From a virus (Duplodnaviria; Caudoviricetes): DNA of 41,350 nucleotides. The stretch is taken from positions 1 through 41,350 of the IMG/VR virus record IMGVR_UViG_3300037722_000155. One strand, written 5' to 3'. The notes beneath the pieces were generated by a model that was not told the origin of the DNA, made no database searches, and worked only from the letters and a program-made list of their open reading frames with translations. The position numbers were made by a program, and so were the translations under genes. Positions 10,317-41,261 of this stretch are shown here, in pieces; within the stretch, counting starts at the first letter, position 1, and every line of letters begins with the position of its first letter.

Positions 10317-10814
10317 ATGACTATAGGAATCATTGGGGCTAGTGCAGACTCTGTCAAATCCACTTCTGAGCATAGGCTTGGTACACGGTTTACTGACACC
10401 AACGGAGTTGAGTATCTCTATTGCCAAGCTGATGGAGACCTGACCCCTGCGGGAGAAGCTGTGGCGCTTGCTATTGATGAGGACTATCAAGTTACCGAGC
10501 TTACGACAGCTCTGGCGCTTGTGGGTCATCGGATCGGCTGGGCTCCACAGGTCACTGTGACGGATGACGACTATTTCTGGGCTCGTATCTCGGGAACTTT
10601 TCCCATTCGTGTAGTAGCTCAGTGCGCTGCCGATATCCAATTGTACACGACGGCGACCGCTGGTGTTCTGGACGATGCGTCCGGCACTGGTTCGCTGGCG
10701 CGTATTGATGGTGTCGTCATCACTGCTGCTGCGGGTTCGTCTTCGGCCTCCGGTGCTGGTCTGGAGATAGACGCGCTCGTAACGAGTGGCGGAGCTTTCG
10801 TGGTTGCTGTCTAG
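10317..10814 (+). CDS. Capsid cement/decoration protein
   Basis: LGTRFTDTNGVEYLYCQA; Ala/Gly/Thr-rich; follows the MCP. Confidence 0.7.
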   Translation: MTIGIIGASADSVKSTSEHRLGTRFTDTNGVEYLYCQADGDLTPAGEAVALAIDEDYQVTELTTALALVGHRIGWAPQVTVTDDDYFWARISGTFPIRVVAQCAADIQLYTTATAGVLDDASGTGSLARIDGVVITAAAGSSSASGAGLEIDALVTSGGAFVVAV

Positions 10815-12217
10815 TGTCTGCTGCCCCGCAAGTGGGTGAAGTGGTCGGGGGCGCTGGTCGCCCCCGACCTTTTGGCAACCCTCTAAATTTCAAGATCTCT
10901 ACGAATGTTGAGTCTGAAAAGCTCTCAGAAAACGTAAAGATCAATACAGAGAAGGGGCTCCCCCTACTCTGGCCCTCTGAGTCTTTAAGGAATGTTCCCC
11001 TCATCATTGTTGGCGGGGGACCTTCACTTAAGGACTACGTGGAAGATATCCGTGAACTACAAAATCACGGAGCTTATGTCATGGGCTTGAACAAAGCCTA
11101 TCATTTTCTTGTTGAGAATGACGTCATTCCCGAGTATTTTCTCATGTCTGATGGGCGTGTGGAGAATATGCCTCTTAGTGAGGGAATCGACCCGGGGACG
11201 ATGTGTCTACTTGCAAGTCAAGTCCACCCAGATGTTGTTGAGGCCTTTGCTTCTCAGTACAGCACTTTTCTTTATCACCTGTATACAGACTCCACGAAGA
11301 TCGTTACTCAGAAAGACCCCGCTCCGAAGCCCTATATTCTCGCCCCTGTGGGGGTATCCGGATATTATGGGATCTACTGTGGTGCGACTATGGGGTACAG
11401 AAATCTTATCTGTTACGGTTTCGACTTCTCCTATGAGAATGGGGATCACCACGCTTTTGAACAGCCCCTGAATGATGATATGCAGATCATTGATGTCAAT
11501 TTCGGGGGGGAGACCTTCTATACGAATGGCATCATGGCCTACGCTGCTGAGAGATTCGCAGCTATGTCTACAGACCTCTATCGTCGGACAGGTACTCAGA
11601 TATCTGTATGTGGTCGAGGACTCCTTCCTGCCCTCCTGCTGGCCGGGAATGCTCGTGGTCAGATTGACGTAGAGGAGCGGGAACGGAAGAAATACCGGGA
11701 TATCTGGGCTACTGAGCAGTACGGAGAAGATTCCTCCCCCGGCATGGATCATGTCCAACTTGCAATGTTGAAGATGGATTGGTCTAAAGGGGATACAGTT
11801 ATTGATTTCGGGTGTGGTAAGGGCGAAGCTGTTTCCCTCCTGAGCTCCCTAGGATTCCAGGCTCGGGGTGTAGACATCGCCTCTAATGCAGTTGCTCATG
11901 ACATTCAGTTTACTGAAGTGTGTCTTTGGAATCTTCCTAAGGATATCCGGGCAGACTGGGGGTATTGCTGTGACGTGATGGAGCACATTCCCACTGAGAA
12001 GGTTCAGGAAACTTTGAAGTGCATTGCTGATGCAGTTGATAAAGGAATTTACTTCAACATTGCTACAGAGGATGATTGCTCGGGGGCGATGATTGGTTTT
12101 CGCCTACATCTTACGGTTATGAAAGCATCAGCCTGGACTGCTCTGTTGAAACAACATTTTTCACATGTTGAGGTTCTCGAAAGCGAATTCTCATCTATCT
12201 TCGTCTGCAAGAAATAG
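10814..12217 (+). CDS. Maf/DUF115 (MptE-like) domain fused to class I SAM methyltransferase
   Basis: IIVGGGPSL...GLNKAY...MSDGR...YGFDFSY in the N half; VIDFGCGKG and CCDVMEHIP in the C half. Confidence 0.8.
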   Translation: MSAAPQVGEVVGGAGRPRPFGNPLNFKISTNVESEKLSENVKINTEKGLPLLWPSESLRNVPLIIVGGGPSLKDYVEDIRELQNHGAYVMGLNKAYHFLVENDVIPEYFLMSDGRVENMPLSEGIDPGTMCLLASQVHPDVVEAFASQYSTFLYHLYTDSTKIVTQKDPAPKPYILAPVGVSGYYGIYCGATMGYRNLICYGFDFSYENGDHHAFEQPLNDDMQIIDVNFGGETFYTNGIMAYAAERFAAMSTDLYRRTGTQISVCGRGLLPALLLAGNARGQIDVEERERKKYRDIWATEQYGEDSSPGMDHVQLAMLKMDWSKGDTVIDFGCGKGEAVSLLSSLGFQARGVDIASNAVAHDIQFTEVCLWNLPKDIRADWGYCCDVMEHIPTEKVQETLKCIADAVDKGIYFNIATEDDCSGAMIGFRLHLTVMKASAWTALLKQHFSHVEVLESEFSSIFVCKK

Positions 12218-23260: not shown

Positions 23261-23382
23261 AGCAGGAACTTGCTGGCTTCCAGGACTACAATAGCCCAGA
23301 TAGCCAACTCAATTCTGACCGCTTGGGTCAGTCTCCGGCTCCGGTTCATTTTCCGAAGAATCGGATCGGTTGTTGCATTCAT
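23254..23382 (-). CDS. 42-aa membrane peptide (not in ORF track)
   Basis: AGGAG RBS; MNATTDP...ELAIWAIVVLEASKFLLW. Confidence 0.5.
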   Translation of the reverse strand: MNATTDPILRKMNRSRRLTQAVRIELAIWAIVVLEASKFLLW

Positions 23383-23887
23383 TTGTCAAATCTCCTATTA
23401 AACTACGAACACGTGAGGCTACAACCCCACTTGGTAATTTTAAGCTATGAAGGTGGGAAAGGCCATTATCCAGAACATAAAGAGCGTCTTGGTTCCCCAT
23501 TCGGATTTCCTTCCTCGCCTTGTAGCAGAGCTGAAGCATGTCCGCAGCCTTCAATACGACCTTTTCTTCTGGGGTAATTTCTTCGATCACAATACCTATA
23601 TCCAACAAGTATTGCCCCTCGATTCTATCGAGAAGTTTTTTCAGTTCTGGATAATCCCTCTTGGCGGGGAAGGGAGCGTCTCCGGTGTAATACTCTGCGA
23701 AATCATGAAGCAGAGCGGTGACGAGCAGTTCTCTGCTCGCGTTCCCATCTGTAATAATGAGACAGAACATGAGCACTCCGGCGGTGTGCTCCCCAACTGT
23801 TTCTTCAGAGCTAACAAACTCTGTGTGATATCGACGCACATGGAAGTTCTCAATGGTGAGTCGGCTTAGAAATACTTCTTCGCTCAA
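23309..23887 (-). CDS. HD-domain deoxynucleotide phosphohydrolase (YfbR/DatZ-like)
   Basis: RRYHT...GEH...LLHDFAEYYTGD...AAD; start uncertain (TTG 23887 chosen). Confidence 0.85.
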   Translation of the reverse strand: MSEEVFLSRLTIENFHVRRYHTEFVSSEETVGEHTAGVLMFCLIITDGNASRELLVTALLHDFAEYYTGDAPFPAKRDYPELKKLLDRIEGQYLLDIGIVIEEITPEEKVVLKAADMLQLCYKARKEIRMGNQDALYVLDNGLSHLHSLKLPSGVVASRVRSLIGDLTNECNNRSDSSENEPEPETDPSGQN

Positions 23888-24815
23888 CCCACTGGAGAGC
23901 TGCAAACTTCCAATCTTCTGCCCTAACTTTGCTGATCCATTCATCTCTATTCTCCCGGTCTAGGTAGGCTCGTATCATGGGGTAGCCGACACTGGTCACC
24001 CAATAAGTTCTAAATTCTTGCACTTGTGAATGGTAGACCATATCAATGCAATCAGCCATGAGGTCTTCGTAGGTCTCCCCACATACGAGAAGAGTATCGG
24101 GCTTTACTGTTCCATAGCAATCGTAATGGTCAGTAGTCTTTTTCAACTCCCTTCCATTCGGCATGTCTGGATAGAAGTGAAGGTTATTGGTGAAAACTCT
24201 GTAGTCCCCAATAGGTATCTTAGTTGAGAGCGCCACTAACTCGTGCAGATAAGTCATATGGACAGCATTCGCTCCCAGCATTCCCCACACCATGTCGTTA
24301 GATCTATTGCATACTGTCATATCTAAACCCCCGTTGACGTATCGGAAATAGATATGAGTATTGCAGGGTCGGTCGCTTGTCTTGGCATGGGCTCCGTCAT
24401 AGACGGGATCCCACATAGAGATCACGGCCTGTCTAGTGTTGGGGTCATGCTGAAGTAAATCAATGACATTACTAATTTGATCTCTTGGGTGTCGCCATCT
24501 CCACCCATAAGCTCCACGGAGTACCCCATCATCTGCGTACTCACTCATCCTCTTGTTGAATTGGCTGATCCACTCAGCATCATTTGACCCGGCCATCATC
24601 CAAATCCACTCAGCTACGTGAAAGAATGGGTTGGCATCACGGATGGGATCAAACAGAACTCTCTGTAGTGGGTATCTAATCGTTAAAAGGCTCGGGTAGG
24701 GAACAGTCAATACAGACCCATTCCGACTCTGTTCCTCAACCCACACGTTGCGGGCCTTCCACCACATCTCAGAGTATGCTCTCGGAACGTTAAGAGCGTT
24801 TATTTCTAAAATCAT
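23850..24815 (-). CDS. Thymidylate synthase-family enzyme, probable dUMP hydroxymethylase
   Basis: RDANPFFH, DRPCN, RSNDMVWGMLGANAVH, NNLHFY; Asn at the dUMP-specificity position. Confidence 0.85.
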   Translation of the reverse strand: MILEINALNVPRAYSEMWWKARNVWVEEQSRNGSVLTVPYPSLLTIRYPLQRVLFDPIRDANPFFHVAEWIWMMAGSNDAEWISQFNKRMSEYADDGVLRGAYGWRWRHPRDQISNVIDLLQHDPNTRQAVISMWDPVYDGAHAKTSDRPCNTHIYFRYVNGGLDMTVCNRSNDMVWGMLGANAVHMTYLHELVALSTKIPIGDYRVFTNNLHFYPDMPNGRELKKTTDHYDCYGTVKPDTLLVCGETYEDLMADCIDMVYHSQVQEFRTYWVTSVGYPMIRAYLDRENRDEWISKVRAEDWKFAALQWVERRSISKPTHH

Positions 24816-24943
24816 GCTTGTAACCTACTGTTTTATAAGGCATTCTTAACCACTTTGCGTCGAAGGCGTCGGGGTAACGGGCAATAGCATGGCCTTGCCC
24901 ATACCCCGATTTAGCCTGTCGATGCGTCTGAGTGGGCCTATTT

Positions 24944-25789
24944 TTAGGTCTTACCTGGATATTTGCGCTTGCTGCGCCCGGTGCCAGTCAAGACCCGACA
25001 ATACTTATCAAACTCACAAAGACAGTTCTGTAGGTCCTGCATGTGGATGTCCCCTACAGTATCGAATATTCTAGGTCGCACATACTGGGCGACTTCTTCT
25101 ATGTCTTGCTGATACGTTCTTGCTGTAACCCTTCTGTCGTGGAACCAAGCCAAACCTCTAAGTGATCCAGGTCCGGGAGCAGAGAATGTCCACCAATCTT
25201 CAGCCTCCGCAAGGGGATGATTCGGAGTATTCTTAAGATCTGCAATAATCTGCGCAGATAGGAAGGAGCCAATTCCATCCATACGTTGAAGTTCAACGTG
25301 ATAGCCTCTACAGGTGTCGACATCAACAAGGGGTAGTCGTCTTGCCGCCTCAGTAAGAACTCCGATACAGTAGTCCAACTTAGGCATCTTCTGACCATGA
25401 GTGGTAATGACATAAGCTCCTCCCCAGATTTTCCTTCCTCTCTCCTGTTCTCCTCGGAGAATTCCCTCAACGTACCCCAAGTCTGAAGTCCTCAACCATC
25501 CAAGAATAGCAGCCAGAGTAGGTGGCCAGTTGAATATACGAGCAGCGACCATCGCTAATTCATAGTTCTGAAAATACTCTGACTTGTAGTTATCACGAAT
25601 CCATCGAGTTACCCTATCGTCCTCCCGATGGACATTGCAGAAGTAAGTCTCCTGGAATACCCAGTCCGTGCTCCACGGCTTCGGTTCATCATGTTCTTTA
25701 AGAACTCGTATCTGTTCCCTCTCGAGAATCCAGTAGACCAGCAACTCCGGCTTCGTATAATCTTTTCCATTGACCTGTAAAATCGACAC
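24944..25789 (-). CDS. 5-hmdU DNA kinase-like protein (helical domain, formerly aGPT-Pplase1)
   Basis: YWILEREQIR..PWSTD..F...FCNVHREDDRVT, RIFNWP, PGPGS.RGL, QNCLCEFDKY; GGAGGAG RBS before GTG 25789. Confidence 0.85.
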   Translation of the reverse strand: MSILQVNGKDYTKPELLVYWILEREQIRVLKEHDEPKPWSTDWVFQETYFCNVHREDDRVTRWIRDNYKSEYFQNYELAMVAARIFNWPPTLAAILGWLRTSDLGYVEGILRGEQERGRKIWGGAYVITTHGQKMPKLDYCIGVLTEAARRLPLVDVDTCRGYHVELQRMDGIGSFLSAQIIADLKNTPNHPLAEAEDWWTFSAPGPGSLRGLAWFHDRRVTARTYQQDIEEVAQYVRPRIFDTVGDIHMQDLQNCLCEFDKYCRVLTGTGRSKRKYPGKT

Positions 25790-26516
25790 GCTCTCCTCCC
25801 ATCCAATTATTCTTGGCTTTCTTAACTTTTGCTTTGATATAAGGCCCGAAACGTTCCTCCAGCCAGTAGCAGGCTTCGGCTTGCATTTCGGGAGTTCTGT
25901 AGTCTGAGCAGCCACCTGGAGCTTGGCAAGTTCCCCAGTCTACGCAGAAATCTGTTATCAGCTTATTCCCCTGTCCCCGACTCAACAGCGTAGCGTTGAG
26001 GATGACGTCCGCTAGTATGGGGAAGCGATACAGGTCAGGTATTTGCCCAATCATACTACGATTTAGTCCCTGCACACATATCACTTTCCCGTTGACTTTG
26101 TACGGGACGGGAGCGGTGTGTCCCATCTGTCTGGGGTGGACTCCCACCAGTGCGGTGTCTTCCAGTAACTGACGAATCATACTAAGACAGTCAGGCATCC
26201 AGTAATTTACTTCATCCCTAGTCTTAATGGTCTGAAGTCCTACAGTTCCGTTGTCCCGCATAACCCGACGGCTGAACACGAGATCATCGTCCAGTATAAG
26301 ACACTTCTGTTGATCGTCCCCCATTCCATCGTATAGAATCCATTCCATCTTTCTGCTGTAGTTATCCACATAGGGGGGGACTTGTATGGTGGGGATACCT
26401 CCGTGGTCTTCCCCTTCAGGGCAGACTAGGAATGTTTGGGGTCTCCAGCTATCGGGAATAGATTCATAGGTCCGCTGATTACCGACACGGCCTCGAGTCA
26501 TTATATAGATGTTCAT
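25698..26516 (-). CDS. GREB1-like/TET-associated (TAGT) glycosyltransferase
   Basis: IYIMTRGR, ILDDDL (DxD), GGCSDYRT, QWKRLY. Confidence 0.75.
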   Translation of the reverse strand: MNIYIMTRGRVGNQRTYESIPDSWRPQTFLVCPEGEDHGGIPTIQVPPYVDNYSRKMEWILYDGMGDDQQKCLILDDDLVFSRRVMRDNGTVGLQTIKTRDEVNYWMPDCLSMIRQLLEDTALVGVHPRQMGHTAPVPYKVNGKVICVQGLNRSMIGQIPDLYRFPILADVILNATLLSRGQGNKLITDFCVDWGTCQAPGGCSDYRTPEMQAEACYWLEERFGPYIKAKVKKAKNNWMGGERVDFTGQWKRLYEAGVAGLLDSREGTDTSS

Positions 26517-26535
26517 CTTTCAATCCTCAGGTCAG

Positions 26536-26567
26536 AAAAAGCCCTGCCTCCGGGAGAAGGCAGGGCT
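26536..26567 (-). terminator. Rho-independent terminator
   Basis: AGCCCTGCCT/AGGCAGGGCT stem followed by a T-run. Confidence 0.8.
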
Positions 26568-26588
26568 CAAAAACGCCGTCGTGGGGGA

Positions 26589-26951
26589 CTACTTGGCGTC
26601 GGGCTTTGGGGCTTCCGGGGGTGCTGTCAGGGTACAGGCACCATCCTGAACGAAGAACCGTAGCCAGCCTCTGGCAGGGTCCTTCATCTTCTTGGCAGAT
26701 TCGGCAAACTGCTCGACAGTCTTGCCGTTCGCAGCTTTCAGAAGATCGTACCATTCTCCGCGTTGTCCGCGGTATTTCTTTTCGGTTTCGACCACGGTAA
26801 TTTTCGCAGTAGGGGCGAAGCCGTAATCTTGTCGGGGGGCTCGTTCTTTCTTCTCGCCGTTGGTCGCTTCGTCTCCCTTCCCAGAGGCTTTGTTCTTGTC
26901 GGAAGTCGGTGGCTTGCTCGGCGGGGCGGATGCTTTGGCTTCTTCGGCCAT
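26589..26951 (-). CDS. Small basic protein, paralogue of 40241-40501
   Basis: Own promoter, AAGGAG RBS and terminator. Confidence 0.8.
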   Translation of the reverse strand: MAEEAKASAPPSKPPTSDKNKASGKGDEATNGEKKERAPRQDYGFAPTAKITVVETEKKYRGQRGEWYDLLKAANGKTVEQFAESAKKMKDPARGWLRFFVQDGACTLTAPPEAPKPDAK

Positions 26952-32467: not shown

Positions 32468-32497
32468 AGTATAACATAATAATGTAATGTCGTGCTA
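32468..32497 (-). promoter_or_regulatory. Sigma70-type promoter for the replication operon
   Basis: TAGCAC-18-TATACT with TGn extension. Confidence 0.6.
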
Positions 32498-37620: not shown

Positions 37621-39714
37621 GTGACGGCCACATTTGAATGGGAAGGATTCACAGAACAAAGACAATACTTAGCGAATAGGGGGATAGATGACATAACACT
37701 TCAGCGTATGAAGGTTGAAGTGGTAACAGCTCACAAACTTACCGAGCTAGGATTTAAATTCCACGAAACAGCCAATCGCGCTATCCTGTGGAACATCAGA
37801 GATATTTCAGGCAAACCGACTCAAAAGTACGGAGCCAGAGTATTCTACAATAAGGGGTTCGCCCCAGAAAATAAACGACCTAAATTTTTGACTCCGAAAG
37901 GTCAGATCCCTGGGGTCTATTTCAGCCCATTAGCTCGCTGGGACAAGATGGAGTACGGGCAGAACGTATACATCTGCGAATCATTCCTTAAGGCTGATAT
38001 CGCATGTATGCTAGGGTTCCACTCTGTCGGCGTCAGCGGCTGTTGGGGATGGCTCTACAAGAATCAATTGAATTGGGATTTTCAGAAAATCCCTTGGCGA
38101 GACATGGGGCTGGTTCCAGTCATATGTTTCGATTCAAATGTTCACCCTGAAACTCCCCTCTATGGCTCTGCCACCAAGTTCCGTGCTCAAATGGACATGC
38201 TGGTCCACATTGATTCTACCAGCATTATAGAACTTCCCCCACAAGAAGCTGATCCTCGTAAGGATTGGGGGCTGGATGATTTCTACCAGGAGAAGGGGAG
38301 GCAGGCCACGCTTGATTTTCTTAACAGTGAACCGACTCGACTCCCCTCCGAGCTGCGGCAGTATCTTAAAGAAATGAATGATCGAGTGGTGTTTGTCAAA
38401 GAATTGAGTCGAGTAGCAGACATAGAGAGTGGTATACTCATGTCTCGTGGCAATTTTGAGGATATGAATTATGCTAACATCATGGCAGAAAATGCAGAGG
38501 GTAAGGTGGTCCCTGTCGCCAAAGTATGGACACGCTGGGATAAACGAAGAGAAGTCAAGAAGATTGGCTATTATCCTGGCGAGGAGCGTGTGGTCGATCC
38601 AGAGTATTACAATCTCTGGAGAGGAATGGGATGTGAGCCTAAGATGGGTGATGTCTCTCTGTTTACTGATTGGATCAACGCTGTATTCCAATCTGAAATG
38701 GAGCGTGATTTCTTTTTGGACTGGTGGAGTTGGCAACTTCAGAATCTTGGCGGGAAGCTGACAACAGCTCTGGTCATGGTGGGAAAGAGTGGTATCGGTA
38801 AGGGCTGGATGACTGACTTGGTGCGTCAAATATTCGGTCAGGATAACGTGGCTCCTATTGATCTATTCACCCTTGGGCGTCAGTTCAACGGGGACTATGC
38901 GACAAAGCAATTAGCGATAGTTGAGGAGTCTGATCAGCTTGCGAGTCGTGGTGGGGGAGTAATCTATAACAAGCTGAAGGACATGATAACTAATGAATTC
39001 GTCAGAGTTGAACGGAAGGGCATGGACGCTTTTACCGTAGAGAATAGGGTCAATCTATTTCTCCAGGGGAATAATATTGACATATTCAAGATAGATGAGT
39101 TTGATAGGAGGCTGGCCGTGCTTGAGCTGGTGGACAGACATGGAGTCATACGGAATAAGTCAGACTATTGGATTCCTCGCTGGCGTTGGGGGAGGGAAGG
39201 AGGGGCAGCCATTGTCTACGGGTTTCTGCTATCCCGTGATCTAAGTAATTTCGATCCTCAAGGGGAAGCCCCGATGACTGAGGCTAAGCGGGATATGGTA
39301 GAGATGACACATGCTCCAATAGACCAGTGGGTGTCGGATTTAATGAGCGATCCTGTAGGAGTTATGCAGGTCAAGGGGAGTGTGGTGGATGGGAGAATAC
39401 ACACCGCGAAGGAGCTGATGTGGGTGTATATGGATGGTAATGTTCCACTATCGGAAATAACTCGAGCTGATACAATGAAAATGGTGAAAGCTCTTAAAAA
39501 CGCTAGGATTCCGGTTGCCAATGGTGGCCAGAAAATAAAGCTTGGCAACCTGAGTCAGCGTTATTTTCTGATAAATGGGGGTGTAGAGGGAGATAAGAGT
39601 AAAAATTGGTCAAAGGAGGGGGAAGAAAGAGTGTTTTGGAAAGCTCTGGTTGCCAGTGGGCAGGGTCAGGTTGCCAGCGAGAGTGGTGTTGGCAACCGGA
39701 ATACGAAATTTTAA
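37621..39714 (+). CDS. Primase-helicase (TOPRIM/DUF3854-like plus SF3/DUF5906 helicase)
   Basis: ICES..KA, G..G...W, ICFDSN, GLDDF; GKSGIGKG, IVEE, N...DRR. Confidence 0.88.
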   Translation: MTATFEWEGFTEQRQYLANRGIDDITLQRMKVEVVTAHKLTELGFKFHETANRAILWNIRDISGKPTQKYGARVFYNKGFAPENKRPKFLTPKGQIPGVYFSPLARWDKMEYGQNVYICESFLKADIACMLGFHSVGVSGCWGWLYKNQLNWDFQKIPWRDMGLVPVICFDSNVHPETPLYGSATKFRAQMDMLVHIDSTSIIELPPQEADPRKDWGLDDFYQEKGRQATLDFLNSEPTRLPSELRQYLKEMNDRVVFVKELSRVADIESGILMSRGNFEDMNYANIMAENAEGKVVPVAKVWTRWDKRREVKKIGYYPGEERVVDPEYYNLWRGMGCEPKMGDVSLFTDWINAVFQSEMERDFFLDWWSWQLQNLGGKLTTALVMVGKSGIGKGWMTDLVRQIFGQDNVAPIDLFTLGRQFNGDYATKQLAIVEESDQLASRGGGVIYNKLKDMITNEFVRVERKGMDAFTVENRVNLFLQGNNIDIFKIDEFDRRLAVLELVDRHGVIRNKSDYWIPRWRWGREGGAAIVYGFLLSRDLSNFDPQGEAPMTEAKRDMVEMTHAPIDQWVSDLMSDPVGVMQVKGSVVDGRIHTAKELMWVYMDGNVPLSEITRADTMKMVKALKNARIPVANGGQKIKLGNLSQRYFLINGGVEGDKSKNWSKEGEERVFWKALVASGQGQVASESGVGNRNTKF

Positions 39715-39870
39715 GTGGCTGAATTGCAAGGTAATCTTTGTAGTTAAGTTGCCAAGTTGCCAAGTTGTTATCGATATACCTACCCTTACATGTATATGTG
39801 TTCTAGAGCTTATGATATAGCTAATATATACCGGCGTAGGTTTTGCTTGGCAACCGGCACCTTGGCAACC
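39513..39870. repeat. Nine GTTGCCA/TGGCAAC iterons, putative replication origin
   Basis: Copies at 39513, 39542, 39648, 39669, 39689, 39747, 39755, 39847 and 39862 around an AT-rich core. Confidence 0.7.
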
Positions 39871-40240
39871 TGGAACAGTCTGGATGGGTGTTCGAAGCTG
39901 TCGTAATCCCCCCTGTTTTGCTCAGAATGGAGTGTAGTTGAGAGTCTTAGACTCAAAACATTTATTTCGATGGAACGGTGAAGCTTGGGCTTCATATAGA
40001 CTCCATTAACATTCATTTAACATAATTATGCGCATAAAAATCACTTAACATAATGCATCTTAGATTATGTTAAATACGAGTTAACATAATGCATCTTTGC
40101 CTATGCAGTATCCGTGCCAAAGATGGGCTTAGAACATTAAATTTTGGTAATGTTATTATGTAATATCAGCCACACTTGGACATTTAGATGGTGCATACTG
40201 ATCACACTGGCAATGACGCCAGCATATAGGAGACTGACAA

Positions 40241-40501
40241 ATGACTACTAAAGATAAGGTGCAAACCATCAAGATCGTCACCGGTGCCAAGGTGAATTTT
40301 CGCAACGGCTCCGCCCGCGCCGAGTATTATGCTCGCCTAAAGGCTTATGACAAAAAGCCGCTGGTGGATTTCGTGGCCAGCGTGGAAAAGGATCCTCCCA
40401 GCGTACCGAATAAAGGTAAGCTCGCTGGCAAGCCAGAGCCTGTCACGGGCTGGATCTCTTGGTTCACCCGGAACGGGTATGCCGAGATTGTGACTGCCTA
40501 G
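40241..40501 (+). CDS. Small basic protein, paralogue of 26589-26951
   Basis: AGGAG RBS; terminator follows. Confidence 0.8.
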   Translation: MTTKDKVQTIKIVTGAKVNFRNGSARAEYYARLKAYDKKPLVDFVASVEKDPPSVPNKGKLAGKPEPVTGWISWFTRNGYAEIVTA

Positions 40502-40513
40502 TCACGGAGATCT

Positions 40514-40542
40514 GAGGGCGCTCTGCGGAGCGCCCTCTTTCT
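40514..40542 (+). terminator. Rho-independent terminator
   Basis: GAGGGCGCTC/GAGCGCCCTC stem plus TTTCT. Confidence 0.8.
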
Positions 40543-40666
40543 GTGCGTGCGATTTAACATAATGCATCGGGGAGTATTATGTTATATCCCCCATTATGTT
40601 AAGTCGCTAACGACGAGTCCCCCTCTCATTGACCCCAACCAATACAAAAAAGAGTACTCCACTCAC

Positions 40667-40718
40667 TCACATATTCGATGAATCTGAGCTAAGTTCACAC
40701 ATTCGATGAATCTGAGCT
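40667..40718. repeat. 24-bp direct repeat, two copies
   Basis: TCACAYATTCGATGAATCTGAGCT at 40667 and 40695. Confidence 0.85.
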
Positions 40719-40814
40719 TATTTCTTAACTATAGTGAAATGAGCGAGCAAACACTCATTCATTCTTTTCTCCTCCTCTTTCTGCTCATCATCGCTCGGTG
40801 TCTCCCATGTCCAA

Positions 40815-41261
40815 TTACTGACTGGCGCGCACGGCGCGAACGAACCCGCTGTAGCGTCGGAGGATCCAGTTCGCGTAGCCGTCGTTGAAGTTGACGCTCC
40901 ACGCGCAGTCGCCCGGGGAGGGCGCATACACGGTTGACGTCCAGAACCAATCGCTCGGGCAGTCGGGGAAGAAACGGATATCGATCGCCGGCCCGTACTG
41001 TGTGTCATCGATCAGCGTAACGAGTTCAGCGCGCGTCGGGATCCGCCAGCCATCCAGCCATCCAGGCCAGACAGCCAGGCGCGATGCCTCGAGCGCGACG
41101 GCGATTCTCGCCTCGGTGTCTTCCGACCAGTCCTCTACCCTGATTGATTCAACGGCCCAGGTCAGGCCGGTCGTGTCGTCGCGGACGGCGATCCAGTCCG
41201 ATGCCTCTTTGTCGAGAGCCTCACCGTCCGGGCCGATCTTTGAATAGTGTTCATTGTTCAT
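40815..41261 (-). CDS. DUF1566 (Lcl C-terminal, C-type-lectin-fold) protein
   Basis: D..TGLTW, WRIPTRAELVTL, WFWTST, AW.V.F..G, VRAVR. Confidence 0.85.
   Translation of the reverse strand: MNNEHYSKIGPDGEALDKEASDWIAVRDDTTGLTWAVESIRVEDWSEDTEARIAVALEASRLAVWPGWLDGWRIPTRAELVTLIDDTQYGPAIDIRFFPDCPSDWFWTSTVYAPSPGDCAWSVNFNDGYANWILRRYSGFVRAVRASQ

Follow-up and report, generated by a model that had tools for sequence, protein, structure and literature searches.

XerD-binding sites outside dif, known as XDS, were reportedly described in the Bacillus subtilis terminus by Karaboja and colleagues in 2021. At the XDS of the B. subtilis terminus, XerD unloads Smc–ScpAB, and an artificial XDS array blocks Smc–ScpAB translocation (as cited in the excerpted text of PMC11840125). 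Within dif, position 8 of the XerD arm is conserved and positions 6–7 vary (PMC2731167, in excerpt), and the inner TTATG is the part required for FtsK-driven reactions (PMC9226527, in excerpt). Mobile elements without a recombinase of their own can also bear Xer-type DNA, as do the IMEX phages (CTXphi, TLCphi with XafT; same excerpt of PMC9226527), and pdif modules hold a small gene between Xer-like sites; as far as the excerpted sources go, both require paired XerC/XerD arms around a central region. The phage locus analysed here also places a small gene between Xer-like words, in this case dense arrays of lone XerD-type arms.

The locus lies in a 41,350-nt stretch of DNA, the window, which is a complete and circular phage record with a 127-bp terminal overlap. 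Seven words matching TTATGTTAAAT with at most one mismatch were found at the coordinates and on the strands given in a preliminary description of this DNA, all of them within 40015–40604, and there are none elsewhere in the whole window. The enrichment over shuffled DNA that the description had proposed as a check was confirmed, with seven words compared with 0.40 expected window-wide and 0 of 100 shuffles reaching seven. Local dinucleotide shuffles yielded means of 0.042 words for the upstream array (four words, 66% AT) and 0.003 for the downstream array (three words), and in neither case did any of 2,000 shuffles reach the observed count.

The upstream array opens with an exact word (40015–40025, − strand), adjoined with no spacer by the palindrome TTATGCGCATAA (40026–40037). 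It continues with a one-mismatch arm (40043–40053, −) whose innermost base differs in three of four runs, an exact arm (40065–40075, +) that stands head-to-head with it across 11 bp, and another one-mismatch arm (40079–40089, −). To these we add an eighth, weaker copy absent from the preliminary description, a promoter-proximal arm with two mismatches (40156–40166, +) that lies 38 nt before a −10-like hexamer and whose position is conserved. Downstream, an exact arm (40552–40562, −) is followed by two one-mismatch arms (40577–40587, + and 40594–40604, +), the second of which, TTATGTTAAGT, is the usual last copy in relatives. As had been described, the two clusters lie on either side of the gene at 40241–40501 and its intrinsic-terminator-like hairpin with T tail (40514–40545, +; the hairpin itself at 40514–40537). 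Damaging variants occur in two imperfect arms in some runs, and no difference is listed in the three exact arms. Weak look-alikes at 32469 and 36816 coincide in part with −10-like promoter hexamers and are left out of the arm count. Beyond the last arm, on its 3′ side, 40648–40720 contains short direct repeats (ACTCCACTCACTC; TTCGATGAATCTGAGCT, doubled).

We built a profile from 181 TTATG sites within 450 bp of the gene at 12 loci found by protein similarity, leaving the other positions free, and compared it with a hand count of 34 beta-, gamma- and deltaproteobacterial dif sites in the excerpted Table 1 of PMC2731167. The base preceding the arm is A in 148 and G in 26 of the array sites, compared with A in 28 and G in 4 of the dif arms. 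Position 6 is T in 173 (dif, 31), position 7 is T in 93 and A in 81 (dif, 24 and 7), position 8 is A in 173 (dif, all 34) and position 9 is A in 158 (dif, 33). Position 10 is A in 109 and G in 53 (dif, A in 25, C in 5 and G in 4), and position 11 is T in 112, C in 36 and A in 26 (dif, T in 31); here the match is weaker, with T in 62% of array sites compared with 91% of dif arms. The signal fades past position 11, to 0.11 bits at position 12, and the profile held when one locus per deep branch was used (96 sites). When sites were anchored on the outer part of the arm instead, the two inner T positions were kept in 160 and 161 of 164. Four common phage words account for 101 of the 181 sites, and each of the four has an identical arm in the excerpted Table 1 of PMC2731167.

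The array repeat shares with dif an 11-bp arm with an invariant inner TTATG, A at position 8, a variable position 7 and a purine before the arm (PMC2731167 and PMC9226527, both in excerpt). It differs from dif in lacking a XerC arm or 6-bp centre and in its many copies, where dif is one. Because the XerC arm and the centre are missing, the arrays, judged by their sequence, are not a member of the dif, IMEX or pdif classes. With the XDS they share dif-like XerD arms that lie outside dif and without a XerC arm; the XDS have a non-recombination role. In contrast to the XDS, the arrays described here belong to a tailed phage and are dense and two-oriented, with 8–22 copies around one gene and an arm of proteobacterial type. 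We consider XerD to be the probable binder of the arrays. Recruitment of host XerD, as proposed in the preliminary description, thus gains indirect support from a consensus kept in relatives, the profile match and arrays that occur without the cassette gene. The phage likely modifies thymine, which could hinder XerD binding.

When we searched for relatives by the cassette protein alone, 26 loci were obtained, 24 of which were confirmed by the family profile (L050 and L294 were dropped); four of these were duplicates, leaving 20 distinct loci. The conservation in related phages that the preliminary description had proposed as a check is borne out: 12 of the 20 have arrays on both sides of the gene, an array locus being defined by at least two arms on each side within 500 bp. 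Array loci hold up to 10 arms upstream and 9 downstream, and arrays are kept down to 37–40% protein identity. The other eight distinct loci have no arm or one (L297, L298, L299, L303, L304, L305, L306 and L315), with the caveats that the upstream flanks of L303 and L304 are short, that L305 and L306 overlap, and that the gene of L315 is partial; the arrays are therefore dispensable. Scans for the motif alone added four family members with arrays (L093, L117, L180 and L245). In the protein tree, array-bearing and array-less genes stand side by side on several deep, unresolved branches, and many array loci belong to one clade. The cassette gene follows the primase gene in relatives and usually stands directly before the gene for the small terminase, TerS.

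Arrays were also found beyond this gene family. When 24 records were searched with the alignment of the family, the five known carriers gave matches and the other 19, all array-bearing, gave none. Seven of the 19 are at least 90% complete; some of the non-family records have only two or three arms, or arms that look like tandem repeats. We scanned 64 selected proteins at the 19 loci without the cassette gene and found the arrays upstream of head or packaging genes in five and after a primase gene in one; 14 of the 19 have no link to packaging genes. Across IMG/VR, the triple-copy pattern as such is not enriched (about 280 stretches compared with about 410 for the reversed word). At a local GC content of at least 0.40 it is enriched: the arm word gave 33 of 125 triple arrays and the reversed word 6 of 123. 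Requiring a further copy on the opposite strand at the same GC threshold left 14 for the arm word and 0 for the reversed one, the 14 including family members. At L260, L139 and L219, 11–26 arm-like words are spread over 0.6–5 kb, with no family match in the locus. In an unrelated phage (L227, approximately 2500–2610), XerD-arm-like words are interleaved with TTATGCACA, which we take to be DnaA-box-like.

The window belongs to a podovirus-like phage present in sediment and soil metagenomes. Its portal protein is at most 39% identical to those of cultured phages, with Mx8 and Mx9 nearest; we found no cultured relatives of the cassette gene or region, and a search at one mismatch gave no arm in two portal-level relatives. 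Structural genes occupy the + strand (1679–22555), and replication and DNA-modification genes the − strand. Thymidylate-synthase-like, 5-hmdU DNA kinase and glycosyltransferase-like genes (23850–26516, −) make it likely that the phage replaces and hypermodifies thymine; the 5-hmdU DNA kinase (HMUDK) was found in all five relatives searched. The thymine-hypermodification cluster, which also includes an HD nucleotidase, and a paralogue of the cassette gene beside it lie within 23309–26951 (−). Elsewhere in the window, an Acb2/Tad1 hairpin-domain protein, likely an anti-defence nucleotide sponge, is encoded at 345–614 (−), and an MptE-like protein fused to a methyltransferase lies within the structural operon (10814–12217, +). 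The region of an Lcl_C (DUF1566) gene at 40757–41261 is strain-variable: sequence is inserted or replaced at 40757 and 40929.

To the left of the cassette is a primase/helicase gene (37621–39714, +; phrog_1156, DUF5906), at whose end lie origin-like GTTGCCA repeats (39514–39875). Nine of the genome's 14 GTTGCCA copies fall within 39514–39869, and these repeats are likely the origin. As their motif differs from the arms, the XerD-like arms do not appear to be origin repeats.

Contig depth in metagenomic runs hints at a terminal position of the cassette. It is covered by a short contig in six of eight runs, and in all six informative runs this contig is 1.6–3.4 times as deep as its left neighbour (41.7/14.0, 16/4.7, 9.3/4.6, 30.2/17.8, 14.1/6.6 and 12.2/7.6), where each contig has a single depth value, which does not measure copy number, and the runs possibly stem from few campaigns. 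The same contig is also deeper than its right neighbour in six of six; the remaining runs, X1 and X3, gave long contigs and are uninformative on depth. In X2 and X4 the depth ratio exceeds twofold, and co-occurring strains that share only the cassette could mimic such an excess. The depths fit a putative terminal redundancy of roughly 39.9–40.6 kb that holds the cassette (39900–40623, rough boundaries drawn from contig depth only). Contigs break at 40576/40601 in six of eight runs, as would be expected if other strains carried one more 17-bp copy. A run of C residues (40619–40623, +) is a candidate end of the terminal repeat; in 12 of 17 array loci it comes straight after the last arm, and array-less relatives have it as well. 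In L117, L299 and L297, GCGAAGC words, which form a very stable mini-hairpin, are repeated between the origin repeats and the cassette, near the inferred left boundary. In T5- and T7-like phages, the pre-early terminal regions enter the cell first, are unusual in their word content and carry a promoter for the host polymerase; those regions avoid host target words, whereas here a host binding word accumulates.

The spacing of the arms was surveyed at 18 loci with 251 sites. Head-to-head pairs are 10–15 bp apart in 45 of 67 cases and direct repeats have a period of 17–20 bp in 51 of 107, values that fit separate footprints of about 17 bp. The best explanation for these arrays, to which we assign a probability of roughly 0.55 from the sequence evidence, is a non-catalytic coat of host XerD on a terminal, first-expressed cassette. 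Single XerD molecules would bind the arrays as the DNA enters, coating both flanks of the small gene as monomers, with neither cutting nor recombination. Since the cassette would lie in the terminal repeat, an array would come to lie close to either end of the DNA as it enters, and the coat could form a barrier that shields the ends and the first gene from SMC-type complexes, end-degrading nucleases or silencers. The promoter-phased arm may in addition aid transcription of the cassette gene. If XerD binding holds, the arrays would by analogy work like the artificial XDS array; that they serve specifically for SMC unloading, which the preliminary description had also suggested, is a more tentative proposition, which we think doubtful.

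The cassette protein itself is likely to bind DNA, which makes it the main rival binder. P0001, encoded at 40241–40501 (+), is a basic protein of 86 residues with a winged-helix-like fold predicted from weak matches. Its model has a pLDDT of 85, and the best match is the PriA winged helix (Z 5.6, rmsd 2.9, 67 aligned), accompanied by many winged-helix rows at Z 4–5; no Foldseek match was obtained at E ≤ 0.001, and no Pfam or PHROG match. FtsK-gamma is not among its best 50 fold matches, which excludes nothing. The family comprises 160 clusters with basic tails and includes fusions to HNH, NOV_C, MrcB_N and AAA_5 proteins; with its nuclease-domain fusions, it may read or shield modified DNA.

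P0001 could bind its own flanking arrays, for autoregulation or as an end coat, in which case the likeness to XerD arms would be convergence or mimicry. The predicted winged-helix-like fold favours this, as does the fact that arrays in the family always bracket the gene, even where TerS is more than 1 kb away (in the window and in G024), and that one arm is phased to the gene's promoter. Moreover, residue 76 of the cassette protein follows the arrays: Thr76 is present in 17 of 17 array-bearing but 2 of 10 array-less proteins, with Val or Ile in 8 of the 10, although this link may be a marker of ancestry. Against it, homologues 46–62% identical have no arrays, and the predicted recognition helix shares 13 of 15 residues with that of array-less L297 but only 6 of 15 with that of array-bearing L117. 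The paralogous clade likewise goes without arms. In the window this paralogue, P0158 (26589–26951, −), has promoter- and terminator-like signals of its own and no arms within 450 bp; a second, paralogous gene was found, as in the window, in each of five relatives searched, and none of seven paralogues has an arm within 450 bp. Similar arrays in the 19 records without the family also speak against P0001, and binding by it would leave the 12-position match to XerD arms unexplained. The preliminary description had named this gene as one motif binder that would overturn its own reading; that alternative is weakened by the array-less homologues and the helix comparison, yet it accommodates Thr76, and we regard it as possible but doubtful.

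Transcription offers another role for the arms, one that is compatible with a XerD coat. XerD, or another host protein that reads the same word, might act mainly as a transcription factor, with an arm at about −49 to −39 activating a promoter that lacks a good −35, and the remaining copies raising local concentration or blocking silencing. At 13 of 16 loci, 37–38 nt separate the start of a + strand arm from a −10-like hexamer, assigned by a loose pattern, that is not accompanied by a good −35. In the window the inferred hexamer is CATACT (40194–40199, +), with no good −35 at 17 bp, and a scan for promoter consensus made no call for the cassette promoter. An arm phased in this way lies where a class II activator or an UP element would be expected. 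Of all the copies, however, the proximal one is the most degenerate and is A-rich, and by the UP-element consensus it may simply be such an element; moreover, half of the sites lie behind the terminator, a stretch that in the window separates convergent genes.

Also in favour of a transcriptional role, in many relatives GA/TC is nearly absent from the cassette gene (about 0.004 compared with about 0.1), as would be expected if it were read first from modified DNA. The excerpted part of PMC13458397 places thymine hypermodification mainly at TG or TC, so a GA/TC-poor gene looks as if it had been kept legible on modified DNA as this enters the cell. In the window, GA/TC depletion of the cassette is mild (65 compared with 95 expected). 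The GA/TC-poor cassette genes are those of L047 (1084–1332), L296, L298, L299, L303, L307 and L311–L313; the protein of L047 contains a single Glu and lacks Asp altogether, and L299 and L305 each carry two tandem homologues, one GA/TC-poor and the other not. We rejected 7-deazaguanine (TGT/DpdA) as the basis of GA avoidance (0 of 5 genomes). On balance, a mainly transcriptional function seems unlikely.

Recombination by XerC/XerD, whether to resolve multimers, to excise or exchange the cassette or to join both ends, finds encouragement in the exact XerD arms, in one XerC-like palindrome and in the arms at 40079 and 40552, which are direct repeats sharing one hexamer. The palindrome TTATGCGCATAA does abut the first copy as reported, and it agrees in 11 letters with the Methylococcus XerC arm of the excerpted Table 1 of PMC2731167. 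This zero-spacer arrangement is unique to the window (one of 67 head-to-head pairs) and is not kept in relatives. As the preliminary description had noted, there is no canonical dif, in which a XerC arm lies across 6 bp (6–8 bp in plasmid sites): none of the 251 sites has a XerC arm at 6 bp, the sole 6-bp spacer among the 67 head-to-head pairs separates two XerD-type arms, and XerC-type words are rare in the flanks of the gene. The dif centre, by comparison, is 6 bp in all proteobacteria analysed, according to the excerpt of PMC2731167. The hexamer TGCATC is indeed present after three copies, but it does not hold as a fixed sequence: 40092 C>A and 40565 C>T occur in two of four runs, and in relatives the central hexamer carries information only in its last one to three bases. 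We therefore rejected TGCATC as a conserved centre; a 15-mer scan gave 40 single hits, mostly chance.

Further observations point the same way. Contigs that skip the cassette, the excised form looked for on the suggestion of the preliminary description, are absent from eight of eight runs, although contigs drop rare variants. With no XerC arm at 6 bp, spacers of mostly 10–15 bp, no conserved hexamer and no excised form in the eight runs, the multimer resolution and cassette exchange that it had proposed both lack support. Its statement that the phage has no integrase holds, as 0 of 5 genomes (the window and four relatives) encode a tyrosine recombinase (PF00589), with a control positive in 14 of 14 genomes. 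We found no complete dif-like attP or paired pdif sites and no integration site or prophage with arrays, and a genome scan, which likewise revealed no host, returned one weak match that the family profile did not confirm. A hairpin (single-stranded attP) form was rejected at z = −1.8, with 9 of 200 shuffles folding equally well. The word GGGNAGGG, which we take to be KOPS from its consensus, occurs 13 times on the + strand and once on the − strand of the window, the strongest bias of 42 letter permutations. Its polarity was rejected as a family trait, the ratios in six relatives being 4:9, 1:2, 3:2, 3:5, 5:5 and 2:5, and this lack of conservation further counts against recombination, which we judge very improbable.

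Least credible of all is that the arrays are packaging signals bound by TerS: they stand directly upstream of its gene in most relatives and near head genes in the five unrelated loci noted above, but the word is common to unrelated phages, TerS in the window starts about 2.3 kb away, and TerS similarity does not predict arrays, given that array-less L303 has a TerS 53% identical to that of the window, as array-bearing relatives do (52–63%), and G024 has arrays with a TerS only 37% identical.

Searches of main article texts, mostly outside subscription journals, found no paper on arrays of lone XerD arms in tailed phages. The borrowing of XerC/XerD by phages for recombination is already known, and lone-arm arrays conserved in divergent tailed phages suggest another use for XerD, a nearly universal host protein, namely that of a simple coat bound to DNA. 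The array is a compact natural substrate of about 600 bp for XerD roles outside dif, such as SMC blocking, end shielding and promoter activation, and is testable with E. coli XerD, with no need for phage culture; the arm variant could help to predict hosts. In its most extended form, which we put forward only tentatively and think more probably wrong than right, the XerD-coat reading would have thymine-hypermodifying podoviruses load host XerD on both DNA ends at entry, where one XerD would activate the first gene and the arrays would clear the phage ends of defence complexes, SMC-type or end-sensing. If true, XerD would be a general non-catalytic host factor of lytic infection, convergently used by many unrelated phages.
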